Position numbers and translations under genes: made by a program. Under the pieces are notes generated by a model. That model saw nothing but the letters and a program-made list of their open reading frames with translations, ran no database searches and had not been told where the DNA came from. A stretch of DNA of 64,000 nt from Escherichia coli (GTDB lineage Bacteria > Pseudomonadota > Gammaproteobacteria > Enterobacterales > Enterobacteriaceae): NCBI RefSeq assembly GCF_003334765.1, contig NZ_QOWT01000004.1; one strand, 5' to 3'. The stretch's first letter is position 1. Each line of letters starts with the position of its first letter. Below, piece after piece: positions 54,024 to 54,077 of the stretch.

Positions 54024-54077
54024 ATATCAGGTGTCAAGAATGGAGAGTTCTCGCTCTCCATTCTTGACGCCTGATAT
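54024..54077. repeat. 24-bp near-perfect inverted repeat (stem-loop) downstream of ymgC
   Basis: atatcaggtgtcaagaatggagag / ttctcg loop / ctctccattcttgacgcctgatat, followed by T-rich sequence; probable terminator of the ycgZ-ymgC operon. Confidence 0.65.

Follow-up and report, generated by a model that had tools for sequence, protein, structure and literature searches.

In the class of transcripts described by Dar and Sorek in 2018, steady-state 3' ends are precise and lie directly past stable stem-loops that carry no U tract, a mild excess of C over G is found downstream, and the tails are trimmed by PNPase and RNase II (PMC6061677). The element analyzed here is a long palindrome located downstream of ymgC in a stretch of Escherichia coli K-12 DNA of 64,000 nucleotides, referred to below as the window. 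It shares with the class of Dar and Sorek a stable stem-loop past the last gene, the lack of a U-rich tail, a downstream preponderance of C over G and the fact that it is not a REP sequence, while it differs from the terminator-like stems of that class in being far longer, with 25 bp and a folding energy of -44.5 kcal/mol. With a canonical intrinsic terminator it has in common a hairpin on the coding strand, located 3' of an operon, but neither an adjacent U tract nor an upstream A tract is present, the base of the stem is A-U rich, and the stem is 2-3 times the usual length. REP and BIME elements are likewise extragenic palindromes of the 3' UTR that could block 3' exonucleases, whereas the hairpin has a single locus across the 5426 E. 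coli genomes searched, and the MG1655 annotation does not mark it as a repeat. REP sequence is G+C-rich, and the hairpin appears to lack sequence of that kind. The hairpin is probably an element of an ordinary kind, namely an mRNA 3' cap and insulator, that is unusually long and was recently perfected. More specifically, it is tentatively regarded as the protective 3' stem-loop of a Rho-terminated ycgZ-ymgABC mRNA, a reading in which our confidence falls somewhat short of even.

The two arms of the palindrome occupy positions 54024-54047 (ATATCAGGTGTCAAGAATGGAGAG) and 54054-54077 (CTCTCCATTCTTGACGCCTGATAT) of the + strand. Each is 24 nt in length, complementary at 23 of the 24 positions, and they are separated by a 6-nt loop, TTCTCG (54048-54053). 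The sole imperfection of the arms is T54032 opposite G54069, which pairs as a U.G wobble in + strand RNA and leaves a C.A mismatch in that of the - strand. Folding of the + strand RNA with RNAfold resulted in 25 consecutive pairs and a 4-nt loop at -44.5 kcal/mol, the 25th pair being U54048.G54053, the outermost positions of the loop, which are C-G in other alleles. Shuffled hairpin sequences displayed a mean of -14.6 kcal/mol (z = -10.5), and none of 200 folded as well. A stem of 24 bp with one wobble and a 6-nt loop had been proposed in the sequence-only reading, together with a calculation of RNA folding energy as a check; both the inverted-repeat coordinates and the fold bear this description out. 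The - strand RNA of the K-12 allele is about equal in stability to the + strand (-45.3 kcal/mol), the fold of the hairpin as a DNA strand reaches -25.8 kcal/mol, and the hairpin still forms when the whole 336-nt ymgC-pdeG spacer is folded. Its unusual length, also pointed out beforehand, was confirmed, since no other close inverted repeat of the 64-kb window is as long or as perfect, and the perfect repeat ranking second has arms of 14 nt. According to our own arithmetic, palindromes of this kind would be expected at a frequency of about 1e-5 per random 4.6-Mb genome.

The location between the ycgZ-ymgABC operon and pdeG is likewise as had been read. The hairpin lies 94 nt past the stop of ymgC (53681-53929, + strand; ORF list and RefSeq annotation of W3110 and MG1655) and 183 nt ahead of the start of the pdeG (ycgG) coding sequence (54261-55784, + strand; ORF list and RefSeq annotation). 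In MG1655, where the coordinate equals the window coordinate plus 1163067, it corresponds to 1217091-1217144. An ORF of 50 aa (53971-54123) runs across the hairpin; a coding reading was rejected, and the ORF is very unlikely to be a gene because B2-type alleles, which differ in length by 4 nt, do not keep its frame. The upstream 94 nt of the ymgC 3' UTR (53930-54023, + strand), which were included in the whole-spacer fold and in the comparison of diversity below, contain a 7-bp stem-loop at about 53955-53979 and may constitute a separate functional element.

The distribution of the hairpin was analyzed in several collections. Of 5426 complete E. coli genomes, 4955 gave a match to the 66-nt element in sensitive BLAST, at one locus in each, the median of 2 "places" per genome representing the palindrome matching itself on both strands. 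A second copy was not found within the 64-kb window with up to 3 mismatches allowed, and the 83 contigs obtained when metagenomes were scanned with the right arm all display the ymgC-pdeG context. Phage sequences gave matches to the hairpin at chance level only, a permissive Rfam scan of 51000-57000 returned only chance-level matches to eukaryotic families, and the annotations of MG1655 and W3110 contain no repeat feature at the site. REP/BIME, ERIC and any other dispersed repeat or MITE were rejected, the element being single-copy and without family consensus or annotation; membership of a dispersed repeat family, which had been named earlier as the finding that would separate the palindrome from this operon, is thus answered in the negative for the collections searched. 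The K-12-type arm gave 0 matches in 100,044 species-representative genomes, which excludes only K-12-type copies in other species, because the B2-type arm does not fit the pattern used. The hairpin is single-copy and E. coli-specific in the collections searched, and, as has been reported, it is only in E. coli that ymgC, ycgG and ymgF have been added to the bluR-bluF-ycgZ-ymgAB unit (PMC3509220). When 100,044 species-representative genomes, the representative of E. coli itself among them, were scanned with peptide patterns of K-12 YmgC, no relative was found; either that representative is without the gene, or it differs at every peptide, or the method missed it. The ymgC-pdeG hairpin is also carried by 14 E. 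coli "plasmid" records (91 kb to 4.9 Mb, all non-mobilizable). Since they are non-mobilizable and some measure 4.8-4.9 Mb, these are probably mislabelled chromosomal fragments or whole chromosomes.

Natural variation in the hairpin was sampled from 9 genomes and 83 metagenome contigs, from which 25 distinct alleles of a region of roughly 200 nt were obtained. These comprise 14 hairpin sequences with short flanks, and 11 distinct hairpin variants were aligned and analyzed. The stem is uninterrupted in K-12-type alleles, and about 58% of hairpin-bearing genomes are at least 99% identical to K-12 across the element. B2-type alleles, which are 80-90% identical to K-12 and are found in about one third of hairpin-bearing genomes, have a stem in which 8 pairs at the base and 14 towards the loop flank an asymmetric internal loop, with 7 nt on its left side and 3 nt on its right; their + strand folding energies are -26 to -29 kcal/mol. 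In other E. coli lineages the stem varies in its middle, at positions 54031-54034 and through an indel that follows them. Since roughly one genome in three has a broken middle, a perfect stem of 25 bp is clearly not required. In 11 of 11 variants the 7 pairs at the foot of the stem do not vary, and for the 11 pairs of the upper helix pairing is seen in 100% of the alignment cells. In the upper helix all 5 variable columns change via wobbles, so that + strand pairing is kept. For example, pair 24 is G-C, G.U or A-U, pairs 20 and 22 are G-C or G.U, and the loop-closing pair is U.G or C-G among the 11 variants. In the lower helix, pair 9 is U.G in K-12, U-A in strains 500010 and 1517k, and C-G in the metagenome contig L052.

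These changes are not evenly distributed between the strands. The wobble states whose pairing is confined to + strand RNA number six, against two confined to - strand RNA, both of these located in the variable middle. Interrupted alleles fold more stably as + strand than as - strand RNA, by 1.1 to 8.9 kcal/mol, and by 4.4 to 8.9 kcal/mol in the three most frequent interrupted forms. The wobble pattern, together with this gap in strand stability, points to a constraint, if there is any, that acts on the sense transcript rather than on DNA symmetry. Formal covariation and shuffle controls of the pair counts in the 11 variants did not reach significance, owing to the small number and close relationship of the alleles. 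Nucleotide diversity is 0.071 in the hairpin and 0.035 in the upstream 3' UTR, and at third codon positions of the four operon genes pi is 0.03-0.05, below the value of the hairpin.

The comparison of alleles also bears on the origin of the perfect palindrome. Quasipalindrome template-switch mutation is a mechanism linked to Ripley, Lovett and co-workers, and the changes seen here resemble it in that they are clustered (7 nt to 3 nt, plus one base) and make the arms of the hairpin exact complements, while the present event differs in being reconstructed solely by comparing natural alleles. The middle segment of K-12 (TGT in GG-TGT-CAAG) departs from complementarity to the right arm by a single transition, and the corresponding segment of the metagenome allele L052 is fully complementary to that arm. 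For the alternative 7-nt segment, GGGCAAACAG (GGGCAAA; GAGCCAA in a third type), no template was found nearby. A flank tree was limited to upstream flanks, since the deletion of pdeG in B2 lineages distorts a full-flank tree; on this tree, which has no outgroup, the interrupted form is located on both sides of the midpoint root. The allele of the L041 type, the most divergent in appearance, was considered as outgroup and rejected, as its flanks differ from those of K-12 by only about 2.5%. Flank trees do not recover the hairpin types as monophyletic groups, implying that recombination has occurred. The perfect K-12 form is probably derived from an older interrupted hairpin, a direction that rests on midpoint rooting, and was plausibly made by one template-switch "quasipalindrome correction" event.

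A palindrome of such origin could be without selected function, that is, a neutral by-product of a template switch that perfected an older imperfect repeat, merely tolerated in an untranslated spacer. This would fit the templating of the K-12 segment by the right arm and the lack of a local template for the alternative segment, the presence of the interrupted form on both sides of the midpoint root and the non-significant covariation, as well as the high frequency of both perfect and interrupted forms and a sequence that evolves no more slowly than third codon positions. It is nevertheless considered unlikely, for 11 of 11 variants retain the 11 uppermost and the 7 lowest pairs, the preservation of + strand pairing in 5 of 5 variable upper-helix columns has a neutral chance of 0.004-0.03 by rough estimate, and no genome with the flanks but without the hairpin was seen.

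The ycgZ-ymgABC genes are represented by a single polycistronic mRNA on Northern blot (PMC3509220), and the hairpin can be connected with this operon through lineages in which pdeG has decayed. It is kept where pdeG lacks its N-terminus (EcPF18 type), where pdeG has an internal stop or an IS3-family insertion, and in contig L061, in which a larger deletion begins about 45 nt past the stem. Because it is kept in lineages with damaged pdeG, the hairpin is tied to the upstream operon and not to pdeG. It is at least as widespread as its surroundings, with 4955 genomes carrying the hairpin and 4941 carrying the flanks, and no natural deletion of the hairpin was seen, since every sampled flank match is split by an insert of 54 or 58 nt. 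Natural inactivation of pdeG is recurrent, by N-terminal deletion, internal stop, C-terminal truncation and IS3-family insertion, with ymgC, the spacer and the hairpin intact; the damaged loci are L002 3298-4191, L003 3336-4859, L006 848-1270, L008 844-1266 and L061.

The same lineages bear on whether the hairpin acts at the level of DNA, be it as a symmetric site for protein binding or within a promoter of pdeG. Genomic SELEX has placed an RpoD holoenzyme site, together with H-NS, in the ymgC>ycgG spacer, and a promoter TTGACG-19-TATTTT was proposed, the -35 hexamer of which, TTGACG at 54064-54069, falls inside the right arm (PMC3946193). Our promoter scan reproduces TTGACG-19-TATTTT as a weak candidate, and the left arm bears TTGACA on the - strand, giving another weak candidate, TTGACA-17-AATAAG. 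A role of this kind is nevertheless rated the least probable of those weighed here. The hairpin persists where pdeG is deleted or dead, and the arms differ by wobble-type changes, under which RNA pairing survives but DNA symmetry does not. The promoter was not called by the consensus scan, given its 19-nt spacer and poor -10, B2-type alleles lose the key A of the proposed -10, the TTGACA of the left arm is destroyed in these alleles, and arms of 24 bp are far longer than the usual operator half-site. Spacing of 16-18 nt with hexamers conserved across alleles, as looked for in a sigma-70 promoter of pdeG, was not found. Promoters inside the arms were rejected on either strand, the candidates being only weak and non-conserved.

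With regard to transcription termination, the sequence directly 3' of the stem, CCCGCCUA, contains 1 U in its first 8 nt in 10 of 10 alleles checked, and the sequence running on from the stem is CCCGCCUAAC. Of the two sequence features looked for in a canonical intrinsic terminator, the stable stem-loop is present (-44.5 kcal/mol, z = -10.5) and the U-rich tract of 7-8 nt is absent; a stable stem-loop past the last gene without a U-rich tail, as looked for in the protective 3' stem-loop class, is present. The ymgC mRNA served Mohanty and Kushner as a detectable, non-polyadenylated control, and among abundant non-polyadenylated ORFs only about 1 in 100 possesses a Rho-independent terminator (PMC1636475), which bears on the hairpin indirectly. 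The sequence-only reading had put forward three options, a very strong terminator insulating pdeG, a processing site and a protein-binding palindrome, of which the last two are kept here as minor possibilities. The first stands in so far as a role at the RNA level, at the end of the operon transcript, is best supported by the strand-specific wobbles and the position, but its Rho-independent part does not, in view of the single U in 8 nt, a consensus terminator scan that did not call the site, and the non-polyadenylated class of the ymgC mRNA. A factor-independent terminator of unusual form, perhaps aided by the distal UUAUUUUGU run, could still release RNA polymerase and insulate pdeG. The hairpin is very stable and immediately follows an operon, a U-rich run is located at 54088-54096, starting 12 nt past the stem, and low-uridine hairpins are possibly weak intrinsic terminators with Rho as backup (Dar and Sorek, PMC6061677). 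However, that run is further degraded to TTTGTTTAA in B2-type alleles, and the stem has an A-U rich base without an adjacent U tract. Taken with the negative scan and a ymgC mRNA belonging to a class almost always without Rho-independent terminators (PMC1636475), this makes such a terminator distinctly unlikely.

The stretch at 54078-54124 (+ strand) is C-rich and G-poor by base counts, has no U tract and is a possible Rho loading region. It contains 12 C and 4 G in 47 nt in 10 of 10 alleles checked, and the C/G ratio reaches its maximum of 1.83 across 54040-54117. A rut-like excess of C over G is therefore present but only suggestive, because the stretch is short. According to the preferred reading, that of a protective 3' stem-loop, RNA polymerase probably passes the hairpin and would leave the template later, within the untranslated ymgC-pdeG spacer; Rho, loaded on the C-rich, G-poor stretch directly past the stem, is the most likely cause of this release. 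PNPase and RNase II, which are 3'-to-5' exonucleases, would shorten the tail as far as the base of the hairpin, and the hairpin would set the mature 3' end, protect the operon mRNA and keep pdeG transcriptionally separate. We infer each of these steps, namely transcription of the hairpin, the action of Rho, trimming, and stabilization of the mRNA at the hairpin. Term-seq data (Adams 2021), acquired at 37 C with the operon repressed by BluR, contain no + strand 3' end within MG1655 1203751-1218676, and the supplementary tables of TERMITe contain nothing at the site of the hairpin. A counterpoint should also be considered, in that the strongest nearby Rho signal is found at the end of ariR and not at the hairpin.

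That signal is a bicyclomycin-sensitive (Rho-dependent) site on the + strand at MG1655 1216634 (window 53567), at the very end of ariR. The literature also describes an sRNA from the ariR-ymgC spacer (53569-53680) and contacts of RprA with ymgA, ariR and ymgC. From these three observations, expression of ymgC may be partly uncoupled from that of the first three genes of the operon.

The length of the K-12 stem brings RNase III into consideration. This enzyme accommodates about 22 bp of double-stranded RNA (PMC6212723), and the K-12, perfect U-A and perfect C-G alleles all exceed about 22 bp without interruption. Because its stem exceeds the length needed, cleavage of the K-12 allele by RNase III is physically plausible. 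Like the substrates in the rnc and pnp leaders, this allele offers a duplex of more than about 22 bp without interruption, but the hairpin is located in a 3' UTR and its stem is interrupted in many lineages. The 25 uninterrupted bp might then be cut by RNase III with loss of the protective end, and this cut would determine how long the operon mRNA, or pdeG read-through mRNA, persists. We regard this as very unlikely, since the stem is interrupted, with 14 + 8 bp, in about a third of genomes, and no meaningful link between ymgC and RNase III appears in the literature searched. A related proposal, given a still smaller probability, is that the K-12-type perfect duplex, and not the interrupted form, makes the protective cap an RNase III-sensitive switch via one palindrome-correction mutation. 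If this were true, the stability of the ycgZ-ymgABC mRNA, and hence Rcs signalling and biofilm control, would depend on RNase III, the activity of which is damped in the cold and in stationary phase, when ycgZ-ymgABC is induced. The switch would then represent a lineage-specific layer of post-transcriptional control.

The ycgZ-ymgABC operon connects blue light, cold and MarA signals with the Rcs system and biofilm formation. The way in which its mRNA ends and is separated from pdeG, a c-di-GMP phosphodiesterase gene, had not previously been described, and the hairpin is the obvious candidate. The natural allele series, which comprises perfect stems, one of them with a U.G wobble, as well as wobble-rich and interrupted stems, is suited to tests of stem length and perfection, with mRNA stability, read-through and RNase III sensitivity as readouts. 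The hairpin may, in addition, offer a clean case from nature of a template-switch mutation that has become fixed in a population.

Two further observations were made in neighbouring regions. A perfect inverted repeat with arms of 14 nt, ATACTTTGTACAAT and ATTGTACAAAGTAT, set 10 nt apart, occupies positions 51042-51079, which lie between bluR and bluF and immediately upstream of the former. Its two TTGTACAA cores resemble the GTACA motif reported for the binding of BluR and MlrA, and the repeat, judged by its sequence, may be a candidate operator for autoregulation of bluR. Within pdeG, published Term-seq displays - strand 3' ends, antisense to the gene, at MG1655 1218619 and 1218676 (window 55552 and 55609). 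A bicyclomycin-sensitive site on the - strand is also located inside pdeG, at MG1655 1218730 (window 55663), and near the antisense 3' ends a terminator-like hairpin, CCAGAATCAACCCGAATTCTGG (55566-55587), was called by the scan. The antisense 3' ends, the bicyclomycin-sensitive site and this terminator-like hairpin together suggest an antisense RNA inside pdeG.
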